The notes beneath the pieces are model-generated. The model had not been told where the DNA came from, made no database searches, and saw only the letters and a list, made by a program, of their open reading frames with translations. From Escherichia phage UP19, in sequence record OX638288: 64,000 bases of DNA. One strand, written 5' to 3'. The position numbers were made by a program, and so were the translations under genes. Shown in pieces: positions 37,700 through 61,164 of the stretch (positions are counted from its first letter, which is position 1; the number at the start of each line of letters is the position of its first letter).

Positions 37700-37728
37700 G
37701 TTTACAAGGTCTATAGACATGATACTAT
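37700..37728 (+). promoter_or_regulatory. Early promoter module (GTTTAC, 17 bp, TACTAT)
   Basis: GTTTAC 37700-37705; TACTATAGGCCTATCAA box. Confidence 0.6.
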
Positions 37729-37765
37729 AGGCCTATCAAAACAAACCAACCACATGGAAATCAAA

Positions 37766-37990
37766 ATGAAAACTTATCAAGAATTTATTACAGAAGCTAA
37801 AAAACACGAAGACCAACTGCCGGTTGTTACAAAAACCTTTGACGGTACATTGGCCGATTTTAAAAAAGTCCCTAGTGATAAGCTCGCTAAATTGGCCGGG
37901 AGTATCGGTGAAAAAGATGGCAAGGTCACGTTTTCTGCTCAAGGTACAGCCAATCTTAAAAAACTTTTGAAAGCCGCTGGCGCAGAATAA
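37766..37990 (+). CDS. Internal-protein-like gene (MKTYQEFITE|AK), Lys-rich
   Basis: Capsid-targeting leader at the ATG 37766; the ORF-track start 37754 lacks an SD. Confidence 0.6.
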   Translation: MKTYQEFITEAKKHEDQLPVVTKTFDGTLADFKKVPSDKLAKLAGSIGEKDGKVTFSAQGTANLKKLLKAAGAE

Positions 37991-37991
37991 A

Positions 37992-38264
37992 ATGAAAACT
38001 TATCAAGAATTTATCGCTGAATCTATTCTTAATGAGGAAGTAAAAATTAACAAATCTGTTAAGACTATGATTGATAATATAAATCATCTCTATAACATCG
38101 ATTTGACTAATCATGTAACTTTAGGCAATAAGCTAAACTTTTTTGTATTCGATACTTCAGAACTCGACCAAAATCAAATCAATAATATTGAACGCTTTGC
38201 TAATGACAAAGGGCTTCGTCACGAAACAGCTGGCTATAAAAAATATGCAATTTATCTAAAATAA
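37992..38264 (+). CDS. Internal-protein-like gene (MKTYQEFIAE|S)
   Basis: Capsid-targeting leader; ATG one base after the upstream stop. Confidence 0.6.
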   Translation: MKTYQEFIAESILNEEVKINKSVKTMIDNINHLYNIDLTNHVTLGNKLNFFVFDTSELDQNQINNIERFANDKGLRHETAGYKKYAIYLK

Positions 38265-38267
38265 ATT

Positions 38268-38297
38268 GTTTACAACGGGCTTTAGTGATGATACTAT
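38268..38297 (+). promoter_or_regulatory. Early promoter module
   Basis: GTTTAC 38268-38273; TACTATAGCCCTATCAA box. Confidence 0.6.
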
Positions 38298-38333
38298 AGC
38301 CCTATCAAAACAAATGAGTGATTGGAGAATAAA

Positions 38334-38519
38334 ATGAAACGTTGTGAATTAATTAGAAATGTTACTGCACTGGCCGCCGTTACTGCTTTTGGCTTTAGTA
38401 TGTTTGCAGGATTCATGTTGGATTTGCTTACAACTTCCGAGAATACAATCTCTTTAGTAGTGGCATTCTTAATTGGTTCAATCTCTTTCGTTATGGATAA
38501 AATCTCTAAAGGTGAATAA
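38334..38519 (+). CDS. Small membrane protein
   Basis: ATG 38334 after GGAGA SD; two hydrophobic helices. Confidence 0.45.
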   Translation: MKRCELIRNVTALAAVTAFGFSMFAGFMLDLLTTSENTISLVVAFLIGSISFVMDKISKGE

Positions 38520-38920
38520 TGAACGTTGAATATTATGTATATGCGGATTACGAAAATAATCCGTCTAAAGATGAAGATAACCGTTTAGGTGTAGATGCTT
38601 TTGAATCCCCTGCAGCGGCATGGCAATGGGTTGAAAGAACCGATATTCCTTACCGTTATATTGAAGTGGTCGACCACGCAGGAAACAAGTATCCTAAGGA
38701 AGCATATGTTCCTTCCGGAAAGGTAAATTTCCTTTTGTTTGCGGGTGATAATTATTATCCACGTGGCGGGTATACCGATTTAATCGCTAAGGCATTTTCT
38801 GAAGACGAACTACGTAATATCGTTAAAGATAATGAGAATAAGCCTCGTTACGGTTCTAATCGTTTTGACTGGTGGCAGATTGTTAATGCTAATACCCACA
38901 CTATTGTAGACGAGGGTTAA
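38519..38920 (+). CDS. Hypothetical protein
   Basis: 133-aa ORF with start overlapping the upstream stop; co-oriented array. Confidence 0.5.
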   Translation: MNVEYYVYADYENNPSKDEDNRLGVDAFESPAAAWQWVERTDIPYRYIEVVDHAGNKYPKEAYVPSGKVNFLLFAGDNYYPRGGYTDLIAKAFSEDELRNIVKDNENKPRYGSNRFDWWQIVNANTHTIVDEG

Positions 38921-39211
38921 ATGTTATACGTTAAGGTTACTAATCCAGGGAATGGCTATAAATCCGATCAGGTTGCAGCCGAGTTGTTGATTCGAAATTA
39001 CGGCAAAGATGCTGTGCTTGATGTTCAACAGGTTAATATTGGCCGTAGTTCAAGCGATGTTAAACTCAAAGTTAACAGCCAACGCTATAATTCTGTTAAC
39101 TTTACTTTTTATACGGCAAATGAAAATGGGTTGGTCGAATATGACATCTTTAAAAATCCTTTGAAAATTGCTTCTATTAAACTTGATTATATTAATATGT
39201 GGCCACAATGA
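38921..39211 (+). CDS. Hypothetical protein
   Basis: 96-aa ORF, tightly packed. Confidence 0.45.
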   Translation: MLYVKVTNPGNGYKSDQVAAELLIRNYGKDAVLDVQQVNIGRSSSDVKLKVNSQRYNSVNFTFYTANENGLVEYDIFKNPLKIASIKLDYINMWPQ

Positions 39212-39684
39212 ATATTAAATTCGGACAAATTATCCCTAAAGGTTATGCAATTGAAATTGAAACCTGGGAAAATGATGGCGATAACTATAAAACCCAGACT
39301 GTATTTGGCGTAGAAGAACATGAAATCCAACAGTACAAATATATCCTAGAACTTTTCCATGGTTCTCATTGCAACAACCCGGATAAATGTGGTAATTCGG
39401 AATGGGACGTAGTTAAGCATCTGGTTATTGCCCACATTGAATCGGGTGTAAAATCAGGCCAGTTGACCCCTGAATTTTTAGATAAGGCCCTCGGTATCCA
39501 AGACTTAGAAGCCTTGCTGAATGACGACGAGGAAGAATACTACTTGAATGAAGCCCTTACTGAGCTCCTTGGTATGGCTTGTGAATATGATGGTGATTTC
39601 ATCCGTGTAATTTCTTACGTTAAGCTGTATATTATTGAAGAAGAAATTAAAATCCCTGATGTGAAAGCACTTGATATGCTTTAA
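39199..39684 (+). CDS. Hypothetical acidic protein
   Basis: 161-aa ORF overlapping the upstream gene end. Confidence 0.5.
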   Translation: MATMNIKFGQIIPKGYAIEIETWENDGDNYKTQTVFGVEEHEIQQYKYILELFHGSHCNNPDKCGNSEWDVVKHLVIAHIESGVKSGQLTPEFLDKALGIQDLEALLNDDEEEYYLNEALTELLGMACEYDGDFIRVISYVKLYIIEEEIKIPDVKALDML

Positions 39685-39807
39685 GAATTATGTGATATTA
39701 TTACTCTATCATTAATACCCTCTATTACCAAAGGTTCTTCCCTCAAAGAGCCTTTCATAATAGACAAGGTCTATTAATCAAACTTACTTTACTTAATTTT
39801 ATTTGAG

Positions 39808-40080
39808 GTGTTTATGTTAGTATTAAAATTAGCTTTTTATGACCCAGAAACCAAGACAACAACTACTAAACGTTGTTCTATTTCATATGAATGCCAATTT
39901 GGCGAAGTTGAGACCGACGGCGAGCCCTTTATGGCAATTGCCGATAGCACATTCGCTAAACCAAAAATAATTCCACTAGTTAATGCTGCGGCTTATCTGG
40001 TTGCTCCTGAAGAAATGACTTATCATACAATTCAGCACATGGCTAAAGATGATAATGCTCCTGCTGGATTTGTAATTTAA
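39808..40080 (+). CDS. Hypothetical protein
   Basis: 90-aa ORF ending just before the tRNA cluster. Confidence 0.4.
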   Translation: MFMLVLKLAFYDPETKTTTTKRCSISYECQFGEVETDGEPFMAIADSTFAKPKIIPLVNAAAYLVAPEEMTYHTIQHMAKDDNAPAGFVI

Positions 40081-40085
40081 ATTAA

Positions 40086-40159
40086 GGCCCTGTAGCTGGA
40101 CGGTCAAGCGAGCGACTCATAATCGCTGGATGGTGGTTCGATTCCACCCAGGGCCACCA
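40086..40159 (+). tRNA. tRNA with CAT anticodon (Met, or Ile if the first anticodon base is modified)
   Basis: Perfect 7-bp acceptor GGCCCTG/CAGGGCC; anticodon loop CTCATAA; T-arm GGTGG-TTCGATT-CCACC; encoded CCA. Confidence 0.8.
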
Positions 40160-40163
40160 ATTT

Positions 40164-40238
40164 GGATGTGTAGCTCAGCGGTAGAGCAGTTGACTGTTAA
40201 TCAATTGGTCCATGGTTCGAATCCATGCATGTCCGCCA
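40164..40238 (+). tRNA. tRNA-Asn (GTT)
   Basis: D-stem GCTC/GAGC; anticodon loop CTGTTAA; T-loop TTCGAAT; encoded CCA. Confidence 0.8.
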
Positions 40239-40242
40239 AATA

Positions 40243-40318
40243 CGAGGCATAGCTCAGAAGGAAGAGCAACGGTCTTCTAAACCGTAGGTCGTAGGTTCGA
40301 TCCCTACTGTCTCGACCA
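40243..40318 (+). tRNA. tRNA-Arg (TCT)
   Basis: Acceptor CGAGGCA/TGTCTCG; anticodon loop CTTCTAA; T-loop TTCGATC; encoded CCA. Confidence 0.8.
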
Positions 40319-40319
40319 A

Positions 40320-40490
40320 ACAAGAAACCGGGTCGCTACCGGTAAGTCGTCGGACTGAAGCTCCCTGAATAAGACCCGACTTTAAGGCGTACATGAGTTG
40401 ACCTCTTAAAGTCCCTTATCTCACAGCTGAAACGGCGCACAGAACACTTGCCTAGCAGGTGGAACCCCGACAAGGTTACCCTAGGTTAAA
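40320..40490 (+). ncRNA. Putative small stable RNA downstream of the tRNAs (T4 has small stable RNAs in its tRNA cluster)
   Basis: About 170 nt with no ORF, between the last tRNA and a strong terminator; GC-richer and palindrome-rich. Confidence 0.3.
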
Positions 40491-40518
40491 GGCCCTTCCG
40501 AAAGGTTGGGCCTTTTTT
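40491..40518 (+). terminator. Intrinsic terminator (copy 1 of a duplicated cassette)
   Basis: GGCCCTTCC-GAAA-GGTTGGGCC followed by TTTTTT. Confidence 0.7.
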
Positions 40519-40519
40519 G

Positions 40520-40527
40520 TATAAATA
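40520..40527 (+). promoter_or_regulatory. Late promoter TATAAATA
   Basis: Immediately after the terminator, 27 bp before the ATG at 40554. Confidence 0.55.
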
Positions 40528-40553
40528 TACAGTAAACTAACTTAGGAAATAAT

Positions 40554-41108
40554 ATGAAACTTTTAAAATATTTGAGTTGGATTCTGTTGGTCCCACTAGA
40601 TTTTATCTCTATGGTTCTAGCCGTTATCCTTGCGCCTTTTGTGGTTCCTTTTCATAATAAAAAGACTGGTAAATTGCCATACGGTTTTGATTGGATGATG
40701 ACATACGATAATCCAATTGACGGCGATAAAGGTCATATTAAACGTTGGGCTAAAATCAGGAAAATGCCTGGTGGTGTTTATCTCCAGAGAGTAGCTTGGC
40801 TATGGCGAAATAAAGCTTATAACTTTGCTTATCATAAACTAGGCCGTGATTGTAGCTCGGAATTCCATTATCGTGGTAATCCTGACGTAGAATCAGGTTC
40901 TCCTGATAAAGCTCACCATGGTTGGTTGTGGATGTGGAATGATGACGCCTGGGGTGTATTTGCTTCAGTTCCTTATCTTAAGGTCGGCGGAATCACATTT
41001 TACCTTCGCGTGTACTGTGGCTGGAAGCTTAAGAGTCTTTTGTCTCGTAAAATCCCTAAAGCTATGTTGGCCTTCCACGTGAACCCGTTCCGGTTCTACA
41101 AGAACTGA
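40554..41108 (+). CDS. Membrane-anchored hypothetical protein
   Basis: 184 aa; N-terminal transmembrane helix; flanked by identical terminator and late-promoter cassettes. Confidence 0.5.
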   Translation: MKLLKYLSWILLVPLDFISMVLAVILAPFVVPFHNKKTGKLPYGFDWMMTYDNPIDGDKGHIKRWAKIRKMPGGVYLQRVAWLWRNKAYNFAYHKLGRDCSSEFHYRGNPDVESGSPDKAHHGWLWMWNDDAWGVFASVPYLKVGGITFYLRVYCGWKLKSLLSRKIPKAMLAFHVNPFRFYKN

Positions 41109-41113
41109 TTTAC

Positions 41114-41140
41114 GGCCCTTCCGAAAGGTTGGGCCTTTTT
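41114..41140 (+). terminator. Intrinsic terminator (copy 2 of the cassette)
   Basis: Same GGCCCTTCCGAAAGGTTGGGCC plus T-run as at 40491. Confidence 0.7.
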
Positions 41141-41141
41141 G

Positions 41142-41149
41142 TATAAATA
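41142..41149 (+). promoter_or_regulatory. Late promoter TATAAATA
   Basis: Follows terminator copy 2; 29 bp before the ATG at 41178. Confidence 0.55.
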
Positions 41150-41177
41150 GATAAGTTAATTAACACAGGAAACAATA

Positions 41178-41795
41178 ATGAAAACTTACAATGAATTTTT
41201 GAACGAAAGCGTTCTGAATGAAGCCGGCGTGCGCATGACTAAAGATATGTGGCAAGCTGCTTATGATAAAATTTCCGGGACTAAAACCACTACCGAGTTC
41301 TTTAAAAACGTTTATGATATGTATGGTTTTGATACTAGTAGCCAGAAAGAATATTACAAAGCTTCCAAAGCTTTTAAAGATATCGTAGCCGGTGGCTCTA
41401 CTAAGCCTGCTAAACCAGCTAAAGCTCCTGTTTCTAAACCCGCGGCTCAGACCAAAGTTGCAGCACCGAAACCTACACCTAAAGCAGAGCCTGTAAAAGA
41501 AGCTCCTAAACCTAAAATCAAGTTCGACACCAGCACTATTGTTAAAAAATATAACCAGCTGGCTTCTTTAGTGTCGGAAATCGAATCCGAAACTAAACAA
41601 CTTGTTCGAGAATTCAATGTTCTTCGTAATGGTCAACACATTAACAACCTAGATACCCCGGACCTCTATCGTCTTTACCTGACGGTTGAAGGCCTTAAGT
41701 ATACCCAGCCTATGCACGAAGAAATTGATAACAAACTTCGTCAAGCCCGCCGCCTTGCAGGTGACGCCGCTCAGTTCGAAAAGACCCGTAAATAA
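41178..41795 (+). CDS. IPIII-like internal protein (leader MKTYNEFLNE|S, Lys/Pro/Ala-rich basic linker)
   Basis: 205 aa against 194 for T4 IPIII; capsid-targeting leader; KPAKPAKAPVSKPAA..PKPTPK histone-like tract; late promoter. Confidence 0.6.
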   Translation: MKTYNEFLNESVLNEAGVRMTKDMWQAAYDKISGTKTTTEFFKNVYDMYGFDTSSQKEYYKASKAFKDIVAGGSTKPAKPAKAPVSKPAAQTKVAAPKPTPKAEPVKEAPKPKIKFDTSTIVKKYNQLASLVSEIESETKQLVREFNVLRNGQHINNLDTPDLYRLYLTVEGLKYTQPMHEEIDNKLRQARRLAGDAAQFEKTRK

Positions 41796-41799
41796 TGAA

Positions 41800-41820
41800 A
41801 GGAGACTTCGGTCTCCTTTT
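41800..41820 (+). terminator. Intrinsic terminator
   Basis: AGGAGAC-TTCG-GTCTCCT followed by TTTT. Confidence 0.65.
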
Positions 41821-41854
41821 AGGGGGTTTAATCTAAAAATAATTTCACAAAGTT

Positions 41855-41883
41855 GTTTACACCTCCTTTAAACGTGATACTAT
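41855..41883 (+). promoter_or_regulatory. Early promoter module; spacer CCTCCTT is complementary to the downstream SD AAGGAG
   Basis: GTTTAC 41855-41860; TACTATAGACCTATCAA box. Confidence 0.6.
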
Positions 41884-41918
41884 AGACCTATCAAAACAAC
41901 AGAGTGAAGGAGAGTAAA

Positions 41919-42182
41919 ATGGATAATTATGGTGAATTGTTTAATTTCTTTATGAAATGCGTTCCTGAAGAATTTGGTGCTACAGTAAACGATATTAAAG
42001 TTATAGGTGATGACCATCCTATATTTGAAACTTACGCAGTAATGGGTAATGACGATGGGCAGTGGTATACCGTAAAGGTTGTGGTTAATATGTTTGCTGC
42101 TGAAGGGTACGTTAAATTGTCGACCAAAGTTTATCACGATAATGATTTTGATGCGGAAGATTATTTCAATAATATGAAATAA
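41919..42182 (+). CDS. Hypothetical protein
   Basis: ATG 41919 preceded by AAGGAGAG; the ORF-track start at 41904 is a GTG. Confidence 0.5.
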   Translation: MDNYGELFNFFMKCVPEEFGATVNDIKVIGDDHPIFETYAVMGNDDGQWYTVKVVVNMFAAEGYVKLSTKVYHDNDFDAEDYFNNMK

Positions 42183-42184
42183 TT

Positions 42185-42214
42185 GTTTACAACCCTCAGA
42201 GGACAGGGTATAAT
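42185..42214 (+). promoter_or_regulatory. Early promoter with canonical TATAAT flanked by inverted repeat GAGGACA/TGTCCTC
   Basis: GTTTAC 42185-42190, 17-bp spacer, TATAAT 42209-42214. Confidence 0.6.
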
Positions 42215-42257
42215 GTCCTCATGGATTACAAAATACCAACCAACTGAAGGAAATACT

Positions 42258-42851
42258 ATGAATACTTTAAAGAAAATTGTTGAGTTCATCCGTTCTAAAC
42301 TGGGTACCGCAATGACTCAGAACCTGTCAATTGAAGACCAGTATACTAAAGCTGCTTCTACCCTGATTGATAAAATTACCGAACTTCAGACTGCTCATGT
42401 TAAGTCGGTGAATGAAGAAAAACGCATTCGTGCATTGGCAAATGAAAAAGACCAGCTCGCTGCTTCTAAAGAACGTGAAATTCGTAAACTGATTAAAGAA
42501 GGCGCCGATGTTCAGGTGCATGCTAAACTAGGCCTCCTTTATCGTCGTACCGCTAATCAACTTCGTAAGAAAGCAGACGATTATATCGAAATGCGTAATG
42601 AAATTAAACTGAAGGTCAAGGAACTTGATGACTCTCGTCAAGAACTGGCTGTTAAGCTCGAGTACATCCGTGAAACTCGTAATATGGCTGCCCTTGGTAT
42701 TGCTACTGCCGATGATGTGGTTGAAATCGCTGCACTGACTAAGATTGATATTGAAGATACCCTGCTGCGTGTAGAAACGTTTAAAGGCCCACAAGTTGGA
42801 ATGGATACGACTTCAGCTGATATCGAAGACTACATTAATTCACTTAAGTAA
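42258..42851 (+). CDS. Coiled-coil protein, function unknown
   Basis: ATG 42258 after AAGGAAA; about 197 aa of amphipathic helix. Confidence 0.5.
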
Positions 42852-42858
42852 TATTACC

Positions 42859-42880
42859 GGGAGACTTCGGTCTCCCTATT
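42859..42880 (+). terminator. Intrinsic terminator
   Basis: GGGAGAC-TTCG-GTCTCCC followed by TATTT. Confidence 0.6.
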
Positions 42881-42899
42881 TGGAGGAGAGGAGAATATT

Positions 42900-43442
42900 A
42901 TGAGTTTATATGATAACCTTATATCAAATATTGATTGGTTTAAAAATAGTGGTCTTTCCCATGAAACCAATTCAGTTCTTTATAGAATTCGCCAAGACCT
43001 AGGCTATTCAAACGATTTCTTAAGCAGAACATCTAGCCGTGGCGATACTACCAAATTACCTTTTATTTTTGCTTTAGCTGAAGACCTTTCTTTTGAAGAT
43101 GCTTTGGAAATTATTGACGTAAATCTGACTATTCAACGAGTGGAATTCGCTGGACTACGTTATTCAGTATATTCTTTAAATGAGAGCGATGATTGTGTGC
43201 TTCTTAATATGGCAGATGATGATTACCATTTAGTATGCTATGTGGCTTTAGAAAATGGTGATGTATTTGGAATGGTCGACCGTCGACCATCTTACACTGA
43301 TATTAAAAATTATGATAAAGCCGAGCTTGGTATCTTAACTGCTGAGTACACATTAGAAAGTCGTAAACAACAACGGAAGCTTAATCGCTTTATTGCTGAA
43401 TGCCGTGAATACGCTAAAGAGGTTCAAAATGGAACGGCCTAG
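42900..43442 (+). CDS. Hypothetical protein
   Basis: 180-aa ORF with GGAGGAGAGG SD upstream. Confidence 0.5.
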   Translation: MSLYDNLISNIDWFKNSGLSHETNSVLYRIRQDLGYSNDFLSRTSSRGDTTKLPFIFALAEDLSFEDALEIIDVNLTIQRVEFAGLRYSVYSLNESDDCVLLNMADDDYHLVCYVALENGDVFGMVDRRPSYTDIKNYDKAELGILTAEYTLESRKQQRKLNRFIAECREYAKEVQNGTA

Positions 43443-43782
43443 TCTTTCATCGCATGTTTATCAATTGGCTGAATATGATATTGCTATTTCCTTATTCACG
43501 GGAATTGTCACAGGTATGCTCGGCGGTCTGGTTGGTCTGGTAATGACCACAGTTATGGCTGCAATCGAAGGAGTCATGCCTATTGAGATGGGTTTCTATA
43601 TGATAATCGCTCCGGCTGTCGTGGCTTATTTTATCCCTCTTGTGTATGATATTTGCCATACAAATGCTTTGAATGCTCCCATCCGTAAGAGATATGCTTT
43701 AGAGATGGCTAATTATAATGAGTATGTAAAACAAACCAAACGTAATGACCTTGAAACCTTTATTAAGGAATGTAAATCATGA
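43429..43782 (+). CDS. Membrane protein with two or three transmembrane helices; paralog of 47860..48447
   Basis: Hydrophobic helices; C-terminal tail ..KRNDLETFIKECKS resembles ..KKNALNSFIEECRK of the other gene. Confidence 0.45.
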   Translation: MERPSLSSHVYQLAEYDIAISLFTGIVTGMLGGLVGLVMTTVMAAIEGVMPIEMGFYMIIAPAVVAYFIPLVYDICHTNALNAPIRKRYALEMANYNEYVKQTKRNDLETFIKECKS

Positions 43783-44069
43783 ATAAAATTGAAATTGAAA
43801 TCCCTGAATACAACGACGAGAAATCTGCAGAAAAAGCTATCTATGCTCTTCTGAATAAAGTAGATACCATCGAACATGAATGTGAAGCTATTGCTGATAA
43901 GTACGGTATTCAATTCGGAACAGGTGATTATGGCTCAGGACGTACATACTACCCTGTTGGTTATGAATGCTCCCAGTGGTTTAAAGATGAAATTGAAAAC
44001 AATGGTGGTGAAGTTGAAAATGGCGTCGTTACAGTTGGTGCCTGGATCTCCTCTTCAGCATTATGCTAA
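43779..44069 (+). CDS. Tandem small-paralog family member 1 (C-terminus ..GAWISSSALC)
   Basis: 96 aa; conserved TGCTAAGG stop/SD junction to the next gene. Confidence 0.55.
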   Translation: MNKIEIEIPEYNDEKSAEKAIYALLNKVDTIEHECEAIADKYGIQFGTGDYGSGRTYYPVGYECSQWFKDEIENNGGEVENGVVTVGAWISSSALC

Positions 44070-44078
44070 GGAAACGCT

Positions 44079-44360: not shown

Positions 44361-44369
44361 GGAAATATT

Positions 44370-44567: not shown

Positions 44568-44576
44568 GGTAATAAA

Positions 44577-46880: not shown

Positions 46881-46909
46881 GTATACAAGGTCTATAGGTG
46901 TGATACTAT
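46881..46909 (+). promoter_or_regulatory. Early promoter module (degenerate -35 GTATAC)
   Basis: TACTATAGACCTATCAA box; spacer GGTCTATAG pairs with the -10 region. Confidence 0.5.
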
Positions 46910-46946
46910 AGACCTATCAAAACAACAGAGTGAAATGGAGAATAAA

Positions 46947-49647: not shown

Positions 49648-49903
49648 AGAATTTTTGGCCGAATCTCAACTGAACGAAAACACTGACCTAGACCGTATGA
49701 CATTCCTGGCTAAGAAAGGCGGCTTCGAATTTAAAGCCATTAAGAAAGTAAATGGGTATTCTTTTGAAGTCGGTGAATATACCTTTGGTAACAAGGGTGA
49801 TGGCCAGTGGCAAATTGTTAAAAACGGCAAAGAAGTAGACTACCTTTTCGGTAAGAAACTTAGTGACATTGCTAAAATAATGGGCGAATATTCTAAAAAA
49901 TAG
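49634..49903 (+). CDS. Internal-protein-like gene ([10 protein letters not shown]|S)
   Basis: Capsid-targeting leader; ATG 49634 overlaps the 3' end of e. Confidence 0.6.
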
Positions 49904-49931
49904 TTTACATCTCCTGTATGCATGATATTAT
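49903..49931 (+). promoter_or_regulatory. Early promoter module; spacer CTCCTGTA pairs with the denV SD TACAGGAG
   Basis: GTTTAC 49903-49908; TATTATAGACCTATCAA. Confidence 0.6.
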
Positions 49932-49959
49932 AGACCTATCAATTACAGGAGATTACAAA

Positions 49960-50376
49960 ATGACTCGTATCAACCTTACCTTAGTATCTGAATTGGCTGA
50001 CCAACACTTAATGGCTGAATACCGTGAATTACCACGTGTTTTCGGTGCAGTTCGTAAGCATGTTGCTAACGGTAAACGTGTTCGTGATTTTAAAATCAGC
50101 CCTACTTTTATCCTTGGTACAGGCCATGTTACATTCTTTTATGATAAGCTTGAATTTTTACGTAAGCGACAAATTGAGCTTATAGCCGAATGTTTAAAAC
50201 GTGGATTCAATATCAAGGATACTACTGTCCAAGACATTTCCGATATTCCACAGGAATTCCGTGGTGATTATATTCCTCACGAAGCTTCTATCGCTATTTC
50301 ACAAGCCCGTTTGGATGAAAAAATTGCACAGCGTCCTACCTGGTACAAATATTATGGTAAGGCTATTTACGCTTAA
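49960..50376 (+). CDS. denV: Endonuclease V (pyrimidine-dimer DNA glycosylase)
   Basis: [31 protein letters not shown].. appears near-identical to T4 DenV as remembered. Confidence 0.92.
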
Positions 50377-50418
50377 TTAAATCCGTGATAGAATACTTCT
50401 ATCAACTTAAGGAATAAT

Positions 50419-50718
50419 ATGAAAACTTATCAAGAATTTATTACAGAAGCCAAAGCTCCTAAAGCATTCCAAATAGGTGTCCAAGGCACCTTAGACCAAG
50501 AATATGTTGATGCTATTGTAGCAAGCCTCGGTAAACAGGGCGTACAAGTGGATTTGGTTGATTTTACTAAAGGTAATACTTTTAATATTGTTACATCTAA
50601 AGGCTCTTTAGCTAAAGTTAAAAAGGCCTTTGGTGTAGCCCAAGCATACGAAATCGACCACTCTGAATTAGAAAATAAAGGTCGCCAGAATACAATTAAA
50701 GGTTCTGGTTCTTTCTAA
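50419..50718 (+). CDS. Internal-protein-like gene (MKTYQEFITE|AK)
   Basis: Capsid-targeting leader; 99 aa against 100 for T4 IPII. Confidence 0.6.
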   Translation: MKTYQEFITEAKAPKAFQIGVQGTLDQEYVDAIVASLGKQGVQVDLVDFTKGNTFNIVTSKGSLAKVKKAFGVAQAYEIDHSELENKGRQNTIKGSGSF

Positions 50719-52190: not shown

Positions 52191-52219
52191 GTTTACATCT
52201 CCTGTAGACGTGGTACTAT
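52191..52219 (+). promoter_or_regulatory. Early promoter module; spacer CTCCTGTAG pairs with the regB SD CTACAGGAG
   Basis: GTTTAC 52191-52196; TACTATAGACCTATCAA. Confidence 0.65.
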
Positions 52220-52247
52220 AGACCTATCAACTACAGGAGATTACAAA

Positions 52248-54648: not shown

Positions 54649-54657
54649 GAAGGTAAT

Positions 54658-55230
54658 ATGGCTCAACTTTATTTTCATTATGCGGCAATGAACTCAGGTA
54701 AGACCGCTTCATTGCTAACGGCAGCTCATAACTACAAAGAACGCGGTATGAGCGTGCTCCTTTTAAAGCCTGCGATAGACAATAGAGAATCAAGCCATAC
54801 CATTTCGTCTCGTATAGGGATTAGTCAAGAGGCTAATGCGGTGACTCCGGATATGGACCTATACGAGTTCTATCGTTGGGCTGAATCTCAAAAAGATATC
54901 CACTGTGTGTTTGTGGATGAAGCACAATTCTTAGAACCTGCACAGATAAAACAACTGGCAAAGATAGTAGACAATTATAATGTTCCAGTTATGTGTTATG
55001 GGCTAAGAACTGATTTTCAGGGTAAACTGTTTCCTGGTTCTGCTGAATTACTCGCTACGGCAGATAAACTCGTTGAGTACAAAGGTGTGTGCCATTGCGG
55101 CCGTAAAGCTACTATGACTGCTAGGGTCCAAGATGGTGTCGCAATTAAGGACGGAGCCCAAGTTTCTATAGGTGGCAACGATTCTTACGTGTCATTGTGC
55201 AGGAAGCACTGGATAGAAATAACGAGTTGA
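54658..55230 (+). CDS. tk: Thymidine kinase
   Basis: P-loop AAMNSGKTASLL; CHCGRKAT..LC zinc site; 190 aa. Confidence 0.9.
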   Translation: MAQLYFHYAAMNSGKTASLLTAAHNYKERGMSVLLLKPAIDNRESSHTISSRIGISQEANAVTPDMDLYEFYRWAESQKDIHCVFVDEAQFLEPAQIKQLAKIVDNYNVPVMCYGLRTDFQGKLFPGSAELLATADKLVEYKGVCHCGRKATMTARVQDGVAIKDGAQVSIGGNDSYVSLCRKHWIEITS

Positions 55231-55237
55231 GGGTACT

Positions 55238-55516
55238 ATGGACCTAAATTCAAAGATTTTAATTCTAGCGTTCGCTGTGGCCATCTCTTATATTGTTCTT
55301 TCGCCCATCATGGATGATGCGGCTTACAAAAGAGAGATAGAAGTTGTAGCAGCGACGTATAATGCTAATAATAAAGAATGCCCTAATAAAAATGGAATGG
55401 ATTTAATTAAAGCACATTATATGCTTTCCATTACCTCGCCTATACAGAGGAATTGGGTTGAATATAATTTTAACGACGTGTTCTATTCTTATTGTCGTAA
55501 GCTTAAAAAGCTATAA
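55238..55516 (+). CDS. Small membrane protein
   Basis: N-terminal transmembrane helix; 92 aa. Confidence 0.45.
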   Translation: MDLNSKILILAFAVAISYIVLSPIMDDAAYKREIEVVAATYNANNKECPNKNGMDLIKAHYMLSITSPIQRNWVEYNFNDVFYSYCRKLKKL

Positions 55517-55519
55517 ATA
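55512..55519 (+). promoter_or_regulatory. Late promoter TATAAATA upstream of rI
   Basis: TATAAATA about 90 bp before the rI ATG. Confidence 0.4.
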
Positions 55520-55609
55520 GTAATACTAACCGTAGAGCTTTAGCTTTTGGTAATCGCTATCGGTTAAGGCCGAAAGGCAAATTCGTATAAAATAACAAAG
55601 GACTTTTGT

Positions 55610-55903
55610 ATGGGTATTTTCCGTACAGTGGCTTGTATCCTTATGATTGGATGTTTAAGCCCAACATCTTCACTAGCAAACAAATCCGACCCTAAATTGA
55701 TGGACGCCTTTGCTAGTAGTGCGATGCCAGTTTATGCGCAAATGAGTAAACCTAGTGTAAAGGCCTCCGAAGACTACTGGGCTTATGTAACTGCTTCTTG
55801 GAAAATTTCAAATTGCAATACAATAGAGTCTTGCTCGATTGAAGGTCAGGCTATCGGAGAACGATACGCTAAACTAATGAAGGTAGATGATGAAATTCAA
55901 TGA
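55610..55903 (+). CDS. rI: RI lysis-inhibition antiholin-like periplasmic protein
   Basis: 97 aa as in T4 RI; N-terminal signal/anchor; LSP..AN.DP block resembles T4 RI; adjacent to tk. Confidence 0.65.
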   Translation: MGIFRTVACILMIGCLSPTSSLANKSDPKLMDAFASSAMPVYAQMSKPSVKASEDYWAYVTASWKISNCNTIESCSIEGQAIGERYAKLMKVDDEIQ

Positions 55904-56273
55904 TTTCGTACTTAGTCGAGGGACTGAAGTAGATTCTTATATTGGTTGGCTGTTGGTTTCTTTAGCCTATTTTAAGTCAGCCCATTTGGAAACCAAAAGC
56001 TATGCAAGACACAAAGCATATGACTTCTATTATACAGAAGTTCAAGGACCACTAGACCAGTTCAGTGAACAGTATTTAGGATTTAGTGGCAAAGAATATA
56101 AAGCATCACTACCATCTGCTTCAGAACTGCCTAAAGACCCCATAGATTTTCTTGATGAACTTATTAAAGCGTCTGATAAAATCTACAAAAATCTTCCTAA
56201 GGCCATCCAATCGACTTTGGACGACATCACTGGTGTCTTTTACCAGACTAAGTATTTGTTAACGTTAGAATAA
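55887..56273 (+). CDS. Hypothetical protein
   Basis: 128-aa ORF followed by a terminator. Confidence 0.45.
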   Translation: MMKFNDFVLSRGTEVDSYIGWLLVSLAYFKSAHLETKSYARHKAYDFYYTEVQGPLDQFSEQYLGFSGKEYKASLPSASELPKDPIDFLDELIKASDKIYKNLPKAIQSTLDDITGVFYQTKYLLTLE

Positions 56274-56277
56274 TCAA

Positions 56278-56305
56278 AGGTCTCACTTCGGTGGGACCTT
56301 TTTTC
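56278..56305 (+). terminator. Intrinsic terminator
   Basis: AGGTCTCAC-TTCG-GTGGGACCT followed by TTTTTT. Confidence 0.65.
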
Positions 56306-56313
56306 GTTTTAGT

Positions 56314-56342
56314 GTTTACTTCCTCTAGGAACGTGATACTAT
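56314..56342 (+). promoter_or_regulatory. Early promoter module
   Basis: GTTTAC 56314-56319; TACTATAGACCTATCAA. Confidence 0.6.
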
Positions 56343-56370
56343 AGACCTATCAACTAATGAGGAGAACAGT

Positions 56371-56607
56371 ATGAAACTTACAAGTACTACGGTTTCATTG
56401 GAATATGAAATCAATAACCGCCTCCTTGAGATTAAGATATTCGACGACCGAAGTATCTTTGCTGACTACCGAGGGTACAGAATTCGCCTAGAAAAGGACG
56501 AGCTCAAGGAACCACGGCTCCTTAAAGACACATTAAAGGGATGTGGGTGTAAGCTGAAGACCACTCAAGCCCAAGAATTAATTTCTACTATCAACAAATA
56601 CTGGTGA
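56371..56607 (+). CDS. Hypothetical protein
   Basis: 78 aa; GAGGAG SD. Confidence 0.45.
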   Translation: MKLTSTTVSLEYEINNRLLEIKIFDDRSIFADYRGYRIRLEKDELKEPRLLKDTLKGCGCKLKTTQAQELISTINKYW

Positions 56608-56611
56608 TATT

Positions 56612-56794
56612 ATGTTAACTACTGAACAGATTGAGAAAATTATTAAACTCGCCCAGCATATTGAAAACGCATCCAATGACCTAGCTGTTGAATATTGCGA
56701 AGGTTATTCATATTCTGGAATAGAGCAGTGTAAACGAGATTTGGCTAACTCCAAAGCGGCCTTGGCTGAGTATCTTAATGAGTTGAAAGCATAA
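56612..56794 (+). CDS. Hypothetical protein
   Basis: 60-aa ORF. Confidence 0.4.
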   Translation: MLTTEQIEKIIKLAQHIENASNDLAVEYCEGYSYSGIEQCKRDLANSKAALAEYLNELKA

Positions 56795-57051
56795 TGGCTG
56801 TTGGATTTGCTAAGGACGGAGCCGAACAGCTCGAAATGGAAGCGGTCGTTCAGGCCGCTATAGTACACGCCCGTAAGCAAGTAGCAGTTGAACGTGAATC
56901 GGCTAAATATTGTTTTGATTGTGATGAAGAGATTCCTGAAGCACGACGTCAAGCTATCAAAGGTGTGATATATTGTATAGGTTGTCAGTCAATGCATGAT
57001 GAAATTTTTAAACGTGAGCCACGTAACTGTTGGCACAGGAGCATGAGATGA
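56794..57051 (+). CDS. DksA/TraR-family C4 zinc-finger protein
   Basis: CFDCDEEIPEARRQAIKGVIYCIGCQ is a CxxC-x17-CxxC finger of DksA/TraR type. Confidence 0.6.
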   Translation: MAVGFAKDGAEQLEMEAVVQAAIVHARKQVAVERESAKYCFDCDEEIPEARRQAIKGVIYCIGCQSMHDEIFKREPRNCWHRSMR

Positions 57052-57132
57052 TTTACTATCTTGAACCTTGGGCTTGGCTTACAATGCTTATTGGTCCAGT
57101 TTTAATAGGTTTATTCTTTTCATGGCTAGCGA

Positions 57133-57340
57133 GGAAACTGTAATGTTATACGACCCAAGTGGTAATTCTGAAGACGGTATTATTGTCCTTTTGGCAGATG
57201 TTGAAGAGTCTGACGATGACATTTTTGTTAAAGATTGGGAAGAAAAAGGCGGAATCACGCTCCAACAAGAAAATGATATGATTTGTCTGAATGCGAGCCA
57301 AGTCGAAGAACTGTACAGTATTTTAAAACACAACCGTTGA
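57133..57340 (+). CDS. Hypothetical acidic protein
   Basis: ATG 57133 after GAGGAAA; 68 aa. Confidence 0.4.
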
Positions 57341-57350
57341 GGAACAGAAA

Positions 57351-57911
57351 ATGATTATTGAAACAACTGAATTGTTTGGCGAACTGACCGCTGAAGTAGT
57401 TAATAATGCAATTGAGCTTTGTCAAGAAGACGATAAAATCGTACTGACTATCCAAGATATTAAACCACTTTATGATTTAAAGGTTTTGGATAAAGATGGG
57501 TATCTTGATGGACGCCATAGAGCATCGTTTGATATTAACGACGATGTATGGGCCCAGATTTATAAAAATGAAGACGGATTTAATATCGAAACTGATACTG
57601 AATGTCTAAGCATTAGGAATTCTAGTAATTTCTTTAAATGTATTTTTAAACTGTTCCAGGAAGAATGCAAGCCAGAAGTTGAATGGAAAGTTCCAGGTCA
57701 AGATGCAGTGATTCGTTCTAGTGAAACATTTGAAGGTGATGAAGAAGAACTGGATTATGATACCGAATTAACCGTGTATCAACACCAGGGTCGTGATTTG
57801 CTATCCTTGACCCAAAGACACGACGGTGAAAATGAAGTGGTATTTACTAAAGACGAGCTAAAAGTTTTAGTCTCTTATCTGAACTCTGTTATCCCAACTA
57901 TGAACCCTTAA
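57351..57911 (+). CDS. Hypothetical acidic protein
   Basis: 186-aa ORF. Confidence 0.5.
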   Translation: MIIETTELFGELTAEVVNNAIELCQEDDKIVLTIQDIKPLYDLKVLDKDGYLDGRHRASFDINDDVWAQIYKNEDGFNIETDTECLSIRNSSNFFKCIFKLFQEECKPEVEWKVPGQDAVIRSSETFEGDEEELDYDTELTVYQHQGRDLLSLTQRHDGENEVVFTKDELKVLVSYLNSVIPTMNP

Positions 57912-57921
57912 GGAAAATATT

Positions 57922-58374
57922 ATGATTATCAATTCAAACTCTTGGCACGTTAAATTACACGACCGTTTTTATGACCGTCATTCTCGACCACACTCTTTGT
58001 GTGCTTATTTCTGGAAAATGGTTTGGGCTTGTTTTGCTTGTGCTGTTGTTGCAGGTAGTACGCTTTTTGGATTAACTGTTGCAGGAGCTGGTGTATTAGA
58101 GCATTTCTTTGTATTAAGTACTCCTGTTCTGTTGAGTCTAGGGTTTGTTTTAGGGTTGATTGCAATAGCTCTTATTATTGCTCTATCCATTGGTTTGGCA
58201 TTAGGTGCGATGAATTTACACGCGTGGTATGATGCACGTAGAGAAGAAAAGGAATGGCAACGTATTCAAGCTGAGCGTGAAGGCCGAGAAACTAAAGAAA
58301 ATATCGTCGTCCAATACATTAAAGCTCGTAAATCTAAGATGTGTCCTGTAATTCACTTCGAGAACAAAGAATGA
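57922..58374 (+). CDS. Integral membrane protein
   Basis: Two or three transmembrane helices; 150 aa. Confidence 0.5.
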   Translation: MIINSNSWHVKLHDRFYDRHSRPHSLCAYFWKMVWACFACAVVAGSTLFGLTVAGAGVLEHFFVLSTPVLLSLGFVLGLIAIALIIALSIGLALGAMNLHAWYDARREEKEWQRIQAEREGRETKENIVVQYIKARKSKMCPVIHFENKE

Positions 58375-59381
58375 GAACAGTTATGAAAGGCTACTTCGGT
58401 AGCCATCTTTATGGAACAAGTACTCCGGAATCTGATGTCGATTTTAAAGAAATCTTTGTTCCACATCCGCGTGATATTCTGTTAGGTACGGCAATGAATC
58501 ATACCAACCTGAACACGAATAACACTGCTTCCAAAAACACTAAAGATGATGTTGACCATGAGCTTTACAGCCTGAAATATTTCTTTAAACTGGCTGCTGA
58601 AGGCGAAACCGTTGCTCTGGATATGCTCCACACTCCGCCTGAAATGGTGGTTAAATCCGATTTACCTGATGTATGGAAATTTATCCAAGATAACCGTTCG
58701 CGTTTCTATACAACTAACATGAAAGCCTATTTAGGGTACGTTCGTAAGCAAGCTTCTAAATATGGTGTTAAGGGTTCTCGTCTGGCTGCTCTGCGTGGTG
58801 TACTGGCTATCGTTAACCAGATTCCTGAACAGTGGGTTGATTATCAAGAAGATGGTTCTACTAAGCAACGACGTACTAAGGTAGAAGATATTAAGCACCG
58901 GCTCCCTGAAAACGAGTTCTGTGAATGGGTATTTCATAACCACGAGAAAACAGGTCCTCAAACGTTCTATACTGTCCTCGGACGTAAGTACCAAACTACT
59001 CTGTCATTGGTCGAGCTTAAGCAATCTCTGAATAAACTTGATGCAGAATATGGCGAACGTGCTCGTAAGGCTGAAGCTAATGAAGGTATTGACTGGAAAG
59101 CTCTGAGCCATGCTTATCGTGCTGGATATCAGTTGAAGGAAATCTATATGACCGGTGACCTTCAATATCCTTTACGAACAGCACCATTTATCCTTGAAAT
59201 CAAACAGGGGCTACATGCTTTTAAAGATGTACAGGCTGAGCTCGAAGCTATAGTTGATGAAGTCGAAACCAATGCCATCTGGGCAGCTAAGAACGGTATG
59301 CCTGATAAGGTAGATATGAAGTTCTGGGACAAGTTCGTTGAGCAGGTTTACCTAGAAAACCATAACTCGTATTATAAATGA
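58371..59381 (+). CDS. Pol-beta-superfamily nucleotidyltransferase-like protein
   Basis: GS-x9-SDVD motif (YFGSHLYGTSTPESDVDF) and downstream acidic residue (ALDML); 336 aa. Confidence 0.55.
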   Translation: MRTVMKGYFGSHLYGTSTPESDVDFKEIFVPHPRDILLGTAMNHTNLNTNNTASKNTKDDVDHELYSLKYFFKLAAEGETVALDMLHTPPEMVVKSDLPDVWKFIQDNRSRFYTTNMKAYLGYVRKQASKYGVKGSRLAALRGVLAIVNQIPEQWVDYQEDGSTKQRRTKVEDIKHRLPENEFCEWVFHNHEKTGPQTFYTVLGRKYQTTLSLVELKQSLNKLDAEYGERARKAEANEGIDWKALSHAYRAGYQLKEIYMTGDLQYPLRTAPFILEIKQGLHAFKDVQAELEAIVDEVETNAIWAAKNGMPDKVDMKFWDKFVEQVYLENHNSYYK

Positions 59382-59383
59382 TA

Positions 59384-59405
59384 AAAGGCCTTCGGGCCTT
59401 TTTTG
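59384..59405 (+). terminator. Intrinsic terminator
   Basis: AAAAGGCC-TTCG-GGCCTTTTTT. Confidence 0.7.
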
Positions 59406-59424
59406 GGTTTAGTGCAAAAAAGTA

Positions 59425-59453
59425 GTGTACATCTGCTTTAAACATGTTATTAT
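59425..59453 (+). promoter_or_regulatory. Early promoter module (GTGTAC / TATTAT variant)
   Basis: Near-duplicate of the 59737 promoter. Confidence 0.5.
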
Positions 59454-59503
59454 AGACCTATCAGCTAAAGAGCTGAAAACTTAAACCAAACGGAGATATA
59501 AAA

Positions 59504-59734
59504 ATGTACGCTATCAAAAATTACAAATACGGTTCTTACACTACTAACTTGATCGCTCTGGAAGATACCTTTAAAGCTGATCGTGCTGAAGAATATGAAA
59601 TTATTGAAGCTGTAACTAAAAACAAAGGTAAACAAGTTGTTATGCCTAATGGCCGTAAAGCTGCTCTTTATACAGTAAATGGTGAAACATGGGCCCGCTA
59701 TAAAGATGGCTTCTGTGAAATTATTGCAAAATAA
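59504..59734 (+). CDS. Hypothetical protein
   Basis: 76 aa; flanked by duplicated promoters. Confidence 0.45.
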   Translation: MYAIKNYKYGSYTTNLIALEDTFKADRAEEYEIIEAVTKNKGKQVVMPNGRKAALYTVNGETWARYKDGFCEIIAK

Positions 59735-59736
59735 GT

Positions 59737-59765
59737 GTGTACATCCATTTCAAACATGTTATTAT
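59737..59765 (+). promoter_or_regulatory. Early promoter module (GTGTAC / TATTAT variant)
   Basis: GTGTACATC..AAACATGTTATTATAGACCTATCA. Confidence 0.5.
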
Positions 59766-59800
59766 AGACCTATCAAATCTACTGAGTGAAGGAGAATAAA

Positions 59801-60781
59801 ATGTTAACTATCAAAATCAACAAAGGTATCTATCGCGGTAATGAAATCTCTGGTACGTTCATGAGTTCAGGTAAAACCTGGTTCCCAAATAAAATTCATG
59901 AATCTGAAGCTCACCTCGGTGATGGCAAGGTATTCGTGCAGATTGATGGTGTTGAACGTGGTGTATGGGTGTTCAAATGTGACGTTGAAATGGAAGGCGC
60001 TGAAGCTCCTGCAATGGTTACTGAATCCGCTGAAGAAATGAAACATCGTATCAACAAACGTTTTAAAGTAATGAACATGATGACTAACGGAATCATCGAT
60101 GGTAAAATTCGTTCCCTTATCATCTCTGGTGCCGCAGGTATTGGTAAAACTTATTCTTTGGATAAAGCATTACAGAATGCCCACGAAAATGAAACTATCG
60201 AATATAAATCAATCAACGGAAAGATTAGTGGAATCGGTCTTTACGAGCAGCTTTGGAATAACCGCGGCCCTAATAGTGTTCTTCTTATTGATGATGTTGA
60301 TGTATTCTCTGACATGGATATTCTGAACCTTCTGAAAGCCGCATTGGATACCGGTGAGAAACGTAAGGTGTGCTGGAGCACTTCAAGTTCTTATCTCGAT
60401 GATAAAAATATCGATAAAGAATTCGAATACGAAGGCACCATCGTGTTCATCACCAACGTTGATATTGACCGTGAATTAGAGCGTGGAACTAAACTTGCTC
60501 CGCACCTCCAGGCTTTAGTATCTCGTTCAGTTTACTTAGACCTCGGAGTTCACTCTAACGAAGAGATTATGGTTCGTGTTGAAGACGTTATCCTGTCCAC
60601 TGATATGATGCAAAATCGAGGTCTGACCGATGCTGAGACTTATCAAGCACTGGCATGGATGAAGGCTAATGTATCTCGTCTTCGTAACGTATCATTACGT
60701 ACAGCTCTTTATCTGGCGGACTTCATTGCCACCGATAAAAATGACTGGAGCGAAATCGCTGAAGTTACACTTCTGAAATAA
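59801..60781 (+). CDS. P-loop (AAA-like) ATPase
   Basis: Walker A GAAGIGKT and Walker B LLIDDVD; ATG 59801 after AAGGAGA. Confidence 0.6.
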   Translation: MLTIKINKGIYRGNEISGTFMSSGKTWFPNKIHESEAHLGDGKVFVQIDGVERGVWVFKCDVEMEGAEAPAMVTESAEEMKHRINKRFKVMNMMTNGIIDGKIRSLIISGAAGIGKTYSLDKALQNAHENETIEYKSINGKISGIGLYEQLWNNRGPNSVLLIDDVDVFSDMDILNLLKAALDTGEKRKVCWSTSSSYLDDKNIDKEFEYEGTIVFITNVDIDRELERGTKLAPHLQALVSRSVYLDLGVHSNEEIMVRVEDVILSTDMMQNRGLTDAETYQALAWMKANVSRLRNVSLRTALYLADFIATDKNDWSEIAEVTLLK

Positions 60782-60791
60782 AGGTGAAATT

Positions 60792-61133
60792 ATGTTTGAA
60801 CAATTTATTTACAATCTTTATAAAGCAGGTTTGGCCCATCGTAATGCCATGAAACAGTCCGTCGAGGACTATGATAAAGAAGTTATCGACGGATATACTA
60901 ATAGAGTTTATAAAACAGATTGTGAAGAAGGAGACTACAAGAGACTGCTCTTGGCTGCGAAGACTCAGGCCTTAATAAATCTAGACCGTAAGCAGGTAAA
61001 GTTGGCAGGCGACTTCCGAGGTGAACTCTGCGCCATCAGGAATGAATATCGCATTCGTATTGAACATCAACGGAAACCTAATACCCAATCAGCGTGGTTT
61101 AGTGGACATGCCGGTGAAAAAAGTTTCTATTAG
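60792..61133 (+). CDS. Hypothetical protein
   Basis: 113-aa ORF. Confidence 0.45.
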   Translation: MFEQFIYNLYKAGLAHRNAMKQSVEDYDKEVIDGYTNRVYKTDCEEGDYKRLLLAAKTQALINLDRKQVKLAGDFRGELCAIRNEYRIRIEHQRKPNTQSAWFSGHAGEKSFY

Positions 61134-61135
61134 TT

Positions 61136-61164
61136 GTTTACATCTCCAGTAGAAATGATACTAT
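61136..61164 (+). promoter_or_regulatory. Early promoter module; spacer CTCCAGTAG pairs with the SD CTACTGGAG
   Basis: GTTTAC 61136-61141; TACTATAGACCTATCAA. Confidence 0.65.

Follow-up and report, generated by a model that had tools for sequence, protein, structure and literature searches.

The 64,000-nucleotide stretch of Escherichia phage UP19 analyzed here (record OX638288; "the window" throughout) carries a 17-bp promoter box, TACTATAGACCTATCAA, in several nearly invariant copies, and this box is very probably the extended core of the T-even-type early promoter. The box class is already known, and its observation here is a re-discovery in a Dhakavirus-like genome; as the known extended core of T4-type early promoters, the box is in itself ordinary. 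A less familiar point is suggested by the surrounding sequence, namely that about half of these promoters lie inside a hairpin that only read-through transcripts could form.

A motif scan allowing up to three mismatches found TACTATAGACCTATCAA 11 times in the window, always on the plus strand and five times exactly, against a chance expectation of 0.21 and a maximum of two matches in 100 shuffles. The copies start at positions 2852, 37723, 38292, 41878, 46904, 49926, 52214, 56337, 59448, 59760, and 61159. The sequence-only reading of this DNA had placed about eleven copies between 37700 and 61164; the number is correct for the window, but ten copies lie in that range (37723–61175), the eleventh lies far outside it (2852–2868), and the end coordinate cuts through the last box, which spans 61159–61175.

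Every copy is preceded at a distance of 17–18 nucleotides (nt) by a GTTTAC-type −35 element (11/11), which takes the form GTATAC or GTGTAC in three. An A/T-rich, UP-like stretch lies 5′ of the −35 element in all box copies. Among the 14 window promoters, which comprise the 11 with the box and variants at 42185, 50365, and 63809, an extended −10 (TGn) is evident from T at −15 in 12/14 and G at −14 in 13/14. A short leader separates the predicted +1 from a Shine-Dalgarno sequence and ATG 18–44 nt further 3′, and the genes behind the boxes are homologues of T4 early genes (denV, regB, internal-protein (IP)-like genes, e.8, trna.4, and nrdC.8/.10), co-oriented and in T4 order. The −35 spacing, the TGn motif, the A/T-rich upstream stretch, and the early-gene homologues 3′ of these promoters all support their original description as early-type. 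Judged by sequence, all testable defining features of T4 early promoters are present in the window promoters.

Nine box copies can be aligned without gaps; their pairwise identity averages 0.94 in the box and 0.91 in the −35 element, compared with 0.59 in the spacer, 0.48 in the upstream stretch, and 0.40 in the leader. The box is thus a real, non-random block that is much better conserved than its flanks, and the observation that conservation from the −10 element through the start site exceeds what sigma-70 needs is confirmed. The composite pattern GTTTAC-N17/18-TAYTAT-N4-CTATCAA is equally one-sided, with 14 plus-strand sites and no minus-strand site in the window. A generic sigma-70 scan showed no enrichment over shuffles (65 versus 57) and is therefore unusable for defining the promoter class.

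Map of the early promoters

The promoters of the window are as follows, all on the plus strand.

2828–2868: early promoter; −35 at 2828–2833, 18-nt spacer, box 2852–2868 (TACTATAGTCCTATCAA), predicted +1 at the A at 2864; followed by a small open reading frame (ORF; ATG 2887) and then a seg-like GIY-YIG ORF (3160–3819)
37700–37739: early promoter; box 37723–37739 (TACTATAGGCCTATCAA); IP-like ORF (MKTYQEFITEAK..., ATG 37766) 3′
38268–38308: early promoter; 18-nt spacer, box 38292–38308 (TACTATAGCCCTATCAA); trna.4 homologue 3′
41855–41894: early promoter; box 41878–41894, exact; e.8 homologue 3′
42185–42225: early promoter without the box; TATAAT GTCCTCATGG; e.6 homologue 3′
46881–46920: early promoter; −35 GTATAC, box 46904–46920, exact
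49903–49959: denV early promoter; box 49926–49942 (TATTATAGACCTATCAA); ATG 49960; product matches Pyr_excise (1.4e-14)
50365–50405: variant early promoter; ATTTAC, 18 nt, TAGAAT ACTTCTATCAA, start-site motif retained; IP-like ORF (ATG 50419) 3′
52191–52247: regB early promoter; box 52214–52230, exact; ATG 52248; product matches REGB_T4 (1.6e-69)
56276–56353: terminator (stem 56276–56301 and T-run), then early promoter with −35 at 56314 and box 56337–56353, exact
59383–59464: terminator (59383–59402 and T-run), then early promoter with −35 GTGTAC at 59425 and box 59448–59464 (TATTATAGACCTATCAG)
59737–59776: early promoter; −35 GTGTAC, box 59760–59776 (TATTATAGACCTATCAA); nrdC.10 homologue 3′
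61136–61190: nrdC.8 early promoter; box 61159–61175, exact
63809–63849: early promoter; TATAAT CCTTTTATCAA, a plain −10 with the TATCAA start-site motif in register

T4 counterparts and spread among relatives

The window is 90–95% identical to the Dhakavirus-type T4-like coliphages IME281, IME08, MX01, and EcWhh-1 and belongs to a Dhakavirus-like T4-type coliphage. We scanned the T4 genome in the same way as the window and listed 31 T4 early promoters. The T4 consensus (n = 31), GTGG TACTAT ACAACT ATCAAC, and the window consensus (n = 14), GTGA TACTAT AGACCT ATCAA, differ at three positions (−13, −5, and −3). CTATCAA stands exactly in register in 10/31 T4 early promoters, and the pattern common to both phages is TACTAT-N4-CTATCAA. 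At denV, the T4 promoter (GTTTAC ATCTCCTGTAGGTATGA TACTAT AGACCTATCAA CTACAGGAGAAC) contains the 17-mer of the box exactly, and it has the same hairpin. These promoters have been described in T4 as extended UP/−35/TGn/−10 "über" promoters whose consensus reaches beyond those elements (Hinton 2010, PMC2988021), and early-promoter logos of T4 relatives favor C at −3 to −1 (Nolan 2006, PMC1524935). The two sets share GTTTAC, the 17–18-nt spacer, TGn, a TACTAT-type −10, a block ending in CTATCAA, and the same early genes; they differ in the dominant discriminator, AGACC here as opposed to ACAAC or TACCC in T4, and in homogeneity, which is higher here (12–13/14 versus ~20/31).

A 31-mer BLAST search retrieved 1016 phage records, nearly all T4-type, with 12–18 places per genome in Dhakavirus, 8–11 in Mosigvirus (RB69-like, e.g., HX01), and 4–8 in Klebsiella T4-likes. 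In IMG/VR, GTTTAC-N17/18-TAYTAT-N4-CTATCAA matched at least 120 stretches, and the 80 loci among the matches listed are all on contigs between 5.5 and ~175 kb in length, mostly ~150–175 kb as in T4-like genomes. The pattern is a very specific marker of early transcription units and useful in annotation. TACTAT and CTATCAA are common to several genera, while the four bases between them differ by lineage, taking at least 28 forms among 139 unique IMG/VR promoters (among them AGAC 46, AGCC 17, ACAA 15, and TACC 10).

The sequence-only reading had allowed that its case would fall if the extended box were the standard early-promoter consensus of all T4-like phages with no class distinction. Given the T4 consensus, the identical 17-mer at T4 denV, and the near-identical Mosigvirus copies, this is largely the situation in T4 and its relatives. 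The two proposed promoter classes do not hold up either. Both plain-TATAAT promoters exist (−35 elements at 42185 and 63809, the latter given earlier as 63808), but the one at 63809 retains the TATCAA motif. Since the start-site motif is kept in register at 63809 and at 50365, leaving only 42185 without it, the variants form a continuum rather than two discrete classes; T4 early promoters show the same mix, with TACTAT, TATTAT, TATAAT, and TATAGT as −10 elements.

Proposed architecture of the promoter core

We infer that +1 is the A of ATCAA, given its distance of 7 nt from the hexamer and the pyrimidine at −1. The box would then consist of a −10 hexamer (TACTAT or TATTAT) followed by a 6-nt discriminator (AGACCT) and by the five bases transcribed first (A-TCAA), and host sigma-70 RNA polymerase, either unmodified or modified by Alt, would use it right after infection. 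As a class, T-even early promoters fire directly upon infection, and ADP-ribosylation by Alt stimulates some of them. It appears to be one module of a ~90-bp expression cassette, made up of an A/T-rich UP element, GTTTAC, spacer, TGn, box, leader, Shine-Dalgarno sequence, and ATG, that stands 5′ of many small early genes in the hyperplastic region. TACTAT and CTATCAA may be kept by selection on how very strong promoters initiate, through open-complex formation, choice of start site, and escape. The central 4–5 bases, in contrast, look like a lineage flavor (AGACC in the window and in RB69-like phages, but ACAAC or TACCC in T4) that could have been homogenized within each genome, plausibly by recombination between cassettes as in the model for PeSL cassettes (see below), and in many copies these bases may also be constrained by pairing to the spacer.

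The copies might instead be nearly identical only because cassettes were recently duplicated or underwent gene conversion (concerted evolution, PeSL-mediated shuffling), with no selection on the box. This alternative, which we consider possible but rather unlikely, would explain why the discriminator differs by lineage (AGACC in the window and Mosigvirus, ACAAC or TACCC in T4), why T4 contains about nine nearly identical ~60-bp cassettes, and why indel breakpoints occur at cassettes; in the one pairwise comparison with EcWhh-1, 3/8 breakpoints do so (49898, 52184, and 56355–56376). It does not sit well with the flanks of the box. Spacer and leader, at 0.59 and 0.40 identity between copies, are 0.97–0.99 identical to those of the corresponding EcWhh-1 promoters, so the box identity is not the mere result of recent whole-promoter duplication, and conversion tracts would need to be limited to 17 bp to leave diverged flanks around an identical box. 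Furthermore, TACTAT and CTATCAA are common to genera that differ in the central bases.

The nearly identical T4 cassettes follow the form AAAAATTTTTTCACAAAAC(G/T)GTTTAC...TGGTACTATACAACTATCAACTACTGATAC, with examples on the minus strand at 167086, 163673, 146875, 70696, 55384, and 27080, and look like a recently spread family. Some of them contain a 12-nt palindrome, ATAAAGCTTTAT, entirely inside the spacer.

Promoter-spanning hairpins

In 6/14 window promoters, the spacer is complementary to sequence 3′ of the −10 element. Two arrangements occur: in type A (46881, 37700, and 38268) the spacer pairs with the −10/discriminator, and in type B (52191, 49903, and 61136) it pairs with the leader including the Shine-Dalgarno sequence. 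The predicted start site of the gene's own promoter falls between the arms. RNA folding gave z-scores of −2.9 to −4.5 for these six promoters and above −1.4 for the other eight. The pairings are as follows, with the promoters designated by the start of their −35 elements.

37707–37716 / 37725–37734: type A hairpin of the 37700 promoter, spacer with −10/discriminator; z −4.5
38277–38287 / 38292–38302: type A hairpin of the 38268 promoter, GGGCT with AGCCC; z −2.9
46888–46897 (AGGTCTATAG) / 46906–46915 (CTATAGACCT): type A hairpin of the 46881 promoter, a perfect 10-bp stem; z −3.2
49909–49918 (ATCTCCTGTA) / 49944–49953 (TACAGGAGAT, containing the Shine-Dalgarno GGAG): type B hairpin of the denV promoter; z −3.1
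52197–52207 (ATCTCCTGTAG) / 52231–52241 (CTACAGGAGAT): type B hairpin of the regB promoter, an 11-bp stem over the Shine-Dalgarno sequence; z −3.2
61142–61152 (ATCTCCAGTAG) / 61176–61186 (CTACTGGAGGT): type B hairpin of the nrdC.8 promoter; z −4.4
42199–42205 (GAGGACA) / 42214–42220 (TGTCCTC): 7-bp stem around the −10 of the 42185 promoter
41855 promoter: weak spacer/Shine-Dalgarno pairing, CTCCTT/AAGGAG
56314 promoter: no significant promoter-spanning hairpin by RNA folding

The complementarity is specific to each promoter. Spacers pair better with their own downstream sequence than with that of other promoters, at p = 2e-4 for the window and p = 5e-5 for T4; T4 promoter stems reach 14 bp. 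Across phages, 37/144 unique promoters contain, in their own spacer, the reverse complement of their discriminator, compared with 7.8 expected, and the two sides vary together (AGCCC/GGGCT, AACCC/GGGTT, TACCC/GGGTA, AGACC/GGTCT, and AGCAC/GTGCT). For type B, we assembled 34 promoters chosen only by spacer length and first leader base. The helix is 71% paired in this set, versus 62% after shuffling (reached in 0/500 shuffles) and 33–50% with the partner columns displaced; its covariation score is 0.33 versus 0.205. At least four compensatory versions of the stem occur (TGTAG/CTACA, AGTAG/CTACT, ATTAG/CTAAT, and TCATG/CATGA), and in the window the nrdC.8 stem differs from the regB and denV stems by a compensatory CCAG/CTGG change. 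The hairpin type is the same at T4 and window counterparts despite the change in sequence, being A at trna.4 and B at denV, regB, and nrdC.8.

Mismatches within the stems carry information about the strand. Single in-stem mismatches give sense-strand G·U in 15–27 cases and A·C in 1–4, where base composition predicts 0.92:1, an excess that is significant only at relaxed thresholds; the strict test, with at least four Watson-Crick pairs on each side, yielded 5 G·U versus 1 A·C (p = 0.22), too few cases. The excess of G·U on the sense strand points to selection on the sense-strand transcript. Together, the covariation and the sense-strand bias point to a hairpin that would form only in read-through RNA: with the predicted +1 between the arms, only RNA arriving from upstream promoters could fold. 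At denV, regB, and nrdC.8, this type B hairpin should mask the ribosome-binding site in read-through RNA, and with the Shine-Dalgarno sequence so masked, translation would depend on initiation at the gene's own early promoter. More broadly, promoter-spanning hairpins might tie the translation of denV, regB, and similar genes to the originating promoter throughout the Tevenvirinae.

Inverted repeats could also act in DNA rather than in RNA, as cruciforms that pre-melt the −10 element or as recombination hot spots. Several stems do bracket the −10 hexamer, but a symmetric mechanism in double-stranded DNA does not predict that G·U is tolerated over A·C (15–27 versus 1–4), the 23-nt loops of type B are unfavorable for cruciforms, and in type B the pairing is specifically to the Shine-Dalgarno sequence; we therefore judge action in DNA to be improbable. 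Nor do the box and its hairpin qualify as a canonical intrinsic terminator, since the stems are not followed by a U-run. The promoter-spanning hairpin is absent from the promoters that stand directly behind a canonical terminator (56276–56301 and 59383–59402); across 286 promoters, this anticorrelation is a weak trend (Fisher p = 0.14, Mann-Whitney p = 0.03).

A third alternative is that a phage factor specific to early promoters binds the box or only its invariant halves, TACTAT and CTATCAA. The start-site motif is indeed confined to the early class in T4, with TATCA in the corresponding register in 0/22 T4 MotA-box promoters, and conservation does exceed what sigma-70 needs. Two reviews give the mechanism of early shut-off as unknown (PMC2988021, PMC3014915). 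A factor that reads the whole box, as originally proposed, is nonetheless unlikely, because the central 4–5 bases vary by lineage and covary with the spacer and so are not read as sequence. In addition, one middle-type promoter of the window (39675) also carries the CTATCA start-site motif, and no candidate protein is at hand. We regard a phage-factor site of either form as very improbable, and there is a similarly slim chance that the invariant halves are the target of the phage mechanism that switches early promoters off 2–3 min after infection.

T4-type phages rely on the host polymerase. The sequence GTGATACTATAGA, formed by the box and 4 nt upstream (e.g., 41874–41886), resembles what we take to be the SP6 promoter core, GTGACACTATAGA, probably by coincidence; a role of the box as a promoter for a single-subunit RNA polymerase was rejected on this ground, as the T4 version (TATAC) loses the likeness to SP6. 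The resemblance could be relevant where SP6 polymerase is used in vitro.

Several points weigh against the interpretation of the box as an early-promoter core selected for initiation and, in part, for pairing with its spacer. The position of +1 was derived solely from spacing and the rule of a pyrimidine at −1 and a purine at +1, and the preference for TACTAT and CTATCAA over the sigma-70 optimum TATAAT has no explanation here. When type A pairing was held to a single register, it did not reach significance in 23 unselected promoters with 17-nt spacers; the box shows hardly any variation among them, and the register shifts with spacer length. A clearly significant hairpin is present in only 6/14 promoters here and, by strict criteria, in ~42% of 144 unique promoters; found in a minority, it leaves box conservation in the other copies unaccounted for. 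Covariation was assessed on sequences from related phages, so the shuffle-based p-values overstate independence. Finally, there are no U-runs 3′ of the hairpins.

A separate and smaller symmetry is found at the box itself. A 5-bp inverted repeat, TGATA...TATCA, formed by the extended −10 and the start site, brackets every box (e.g., 52211–52229), and several minimum-free-energy folds show it as an inner mini-hairpin. The corresponding T4 sequence, TGGTA...TATCA, would retain the same mini-hairpin through a G·U pair.

Relation to known regulatory elements

PeSL cassettes, described from RB49/phi1, PST/T4, and nt-1/KVP40, combine an early promoter with a stem-loop and a Shine-Dalgarno/ATG in hyperplastic regions (Arbiol 2010, PMC2839356; Comeau 2014, PMC4122927). 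Their stem-loops often lie between the −35 and −10 elements or over the −10 and have been proposed to be attenuators and recombination sites (PMC2839356, PMC4122927). Excision as mini-circles is a further trait of PeSLs. The window cassettes are likewise ~100-bp composites with a stem-loop and Shine-Dalgarno/ATG, with small ORFs or IP genes nearby, and in the EcWhh-1 comparison some indel breakpoints fall at them; six have a hairpin with z ≤ −2.9, and two more have a canonical terminator directly 5′. Unlike RB49-type PeSLs, they lack a TTGACA −35 element and polyG/polyC stems and have GTTTAC and mixed-sequence stems instead. Their stems also differ in composition, with the spacer as one arm and either discriminator or Shine-Dalgarno sequence as the other, and U-runs are lacking. 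At T-even IP loci, analogous elements with weaker, AT-richer stems occur on T4 early promoters (Arbiol 2010, PMC2839356), and these match the window, which has IP-like genes. As the RB49-type features are missing, the window elements are best viewed as T-even analogues rather than homologues of the RB49 PeSLs, a distinction made in PMC2839356.

The type B hairpins resemble a second group, the promoter-spanning hairpins of T4 e, soc, 49, and I-TevI, which sequester the ribosome-binding site (Uzan & Miller 2010, PMC3014915). In both, the 5′ arm lies before an internal start site and the 3′ arm lies over the Shine-Dalgarno sequence, such that long transcripts fold and short ones do not. The internal promoter is late in the T4 cases (gp55, TATAAATA) and early sigma-70 in the window, where the effect on translation is a prediction. 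By analogy, then, the type B element follows the same logic as the T4 e/soc/49/I-TevI family but is not a member of it. If correct, the hairpin result extends a principle known for a few late-promoter cases, and it suggests that T-even phages may distinguish read-through from promoter-proximal transcripts at many early genes. The hairpin analysis is thus a modest, testable refinement, and the box itself is of little import. We found no genome-wide map of T4 transcription start sites in the literature.

Neighboring genes and minor features

From ~35 kb onward, the plus strand of the window is the early hyperplastic region, the counterpart of T4 57B-ipI-tRNA-e-denV-regB-vs-tk-rI-mobD-nrdC. Within it lies the middle-type promoter:

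39675–39712, plus strand: MotA-box (middle-type) promoter; TATGCTTTA, 12 nt, TATTAT TACTCTATCA; 5′ of three tRNA genes

The tRNA genes 3′ of this promoter are Met, Asn, and Arg (40086–40318), and 39764–40317 is replaced relative to EcWhh-1.

The isolated promoter at 2828 stands among late genes. Two tandem paralogues of the gene 24 vertex protein (222–1502 and 1502–2785, minus strand) adjoin gene 23 (3877–5436, minus strand), and a plus-strand cassette between late genes 24 and 23 consists of the box promoter, an 89-amino-acid ORF, and the seg-like GIY-YIG ORF at 3160–3819, whose Pfam matches are below cut-off. The cassette looks like a mobile endonuclease cassette with an early promoter within the late region.

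The small ORFs at 37766–37990 and 50419–50718 both begin with MKTYQEFITEAK, which we take to be the capsid-targeting leader of T4 internal proteins, and each lies directly behind an early promoter. Variable IP loci were reportedly described by Repoila and Krisch, and the IP-like ORFs of the window are similarly placed behind promoters. The nrdC.10 homologue (59801–60781) gives weak, sub-threshold Pfam matches to AAA/STAND-type NTPase domains and a helix-turn-helix. Lastly, where the window has 56355–56376, EcWhh-1 (at 34798–35063) has an extra 231-bp ORF inserted between two copies of the leader/Shine-Dalgarno sequence of the 56314 promoter, AATGAGGA(G/A)AACA, which suggests that the repeated ribosome-binding region, rather than the box, was where recombination took place.

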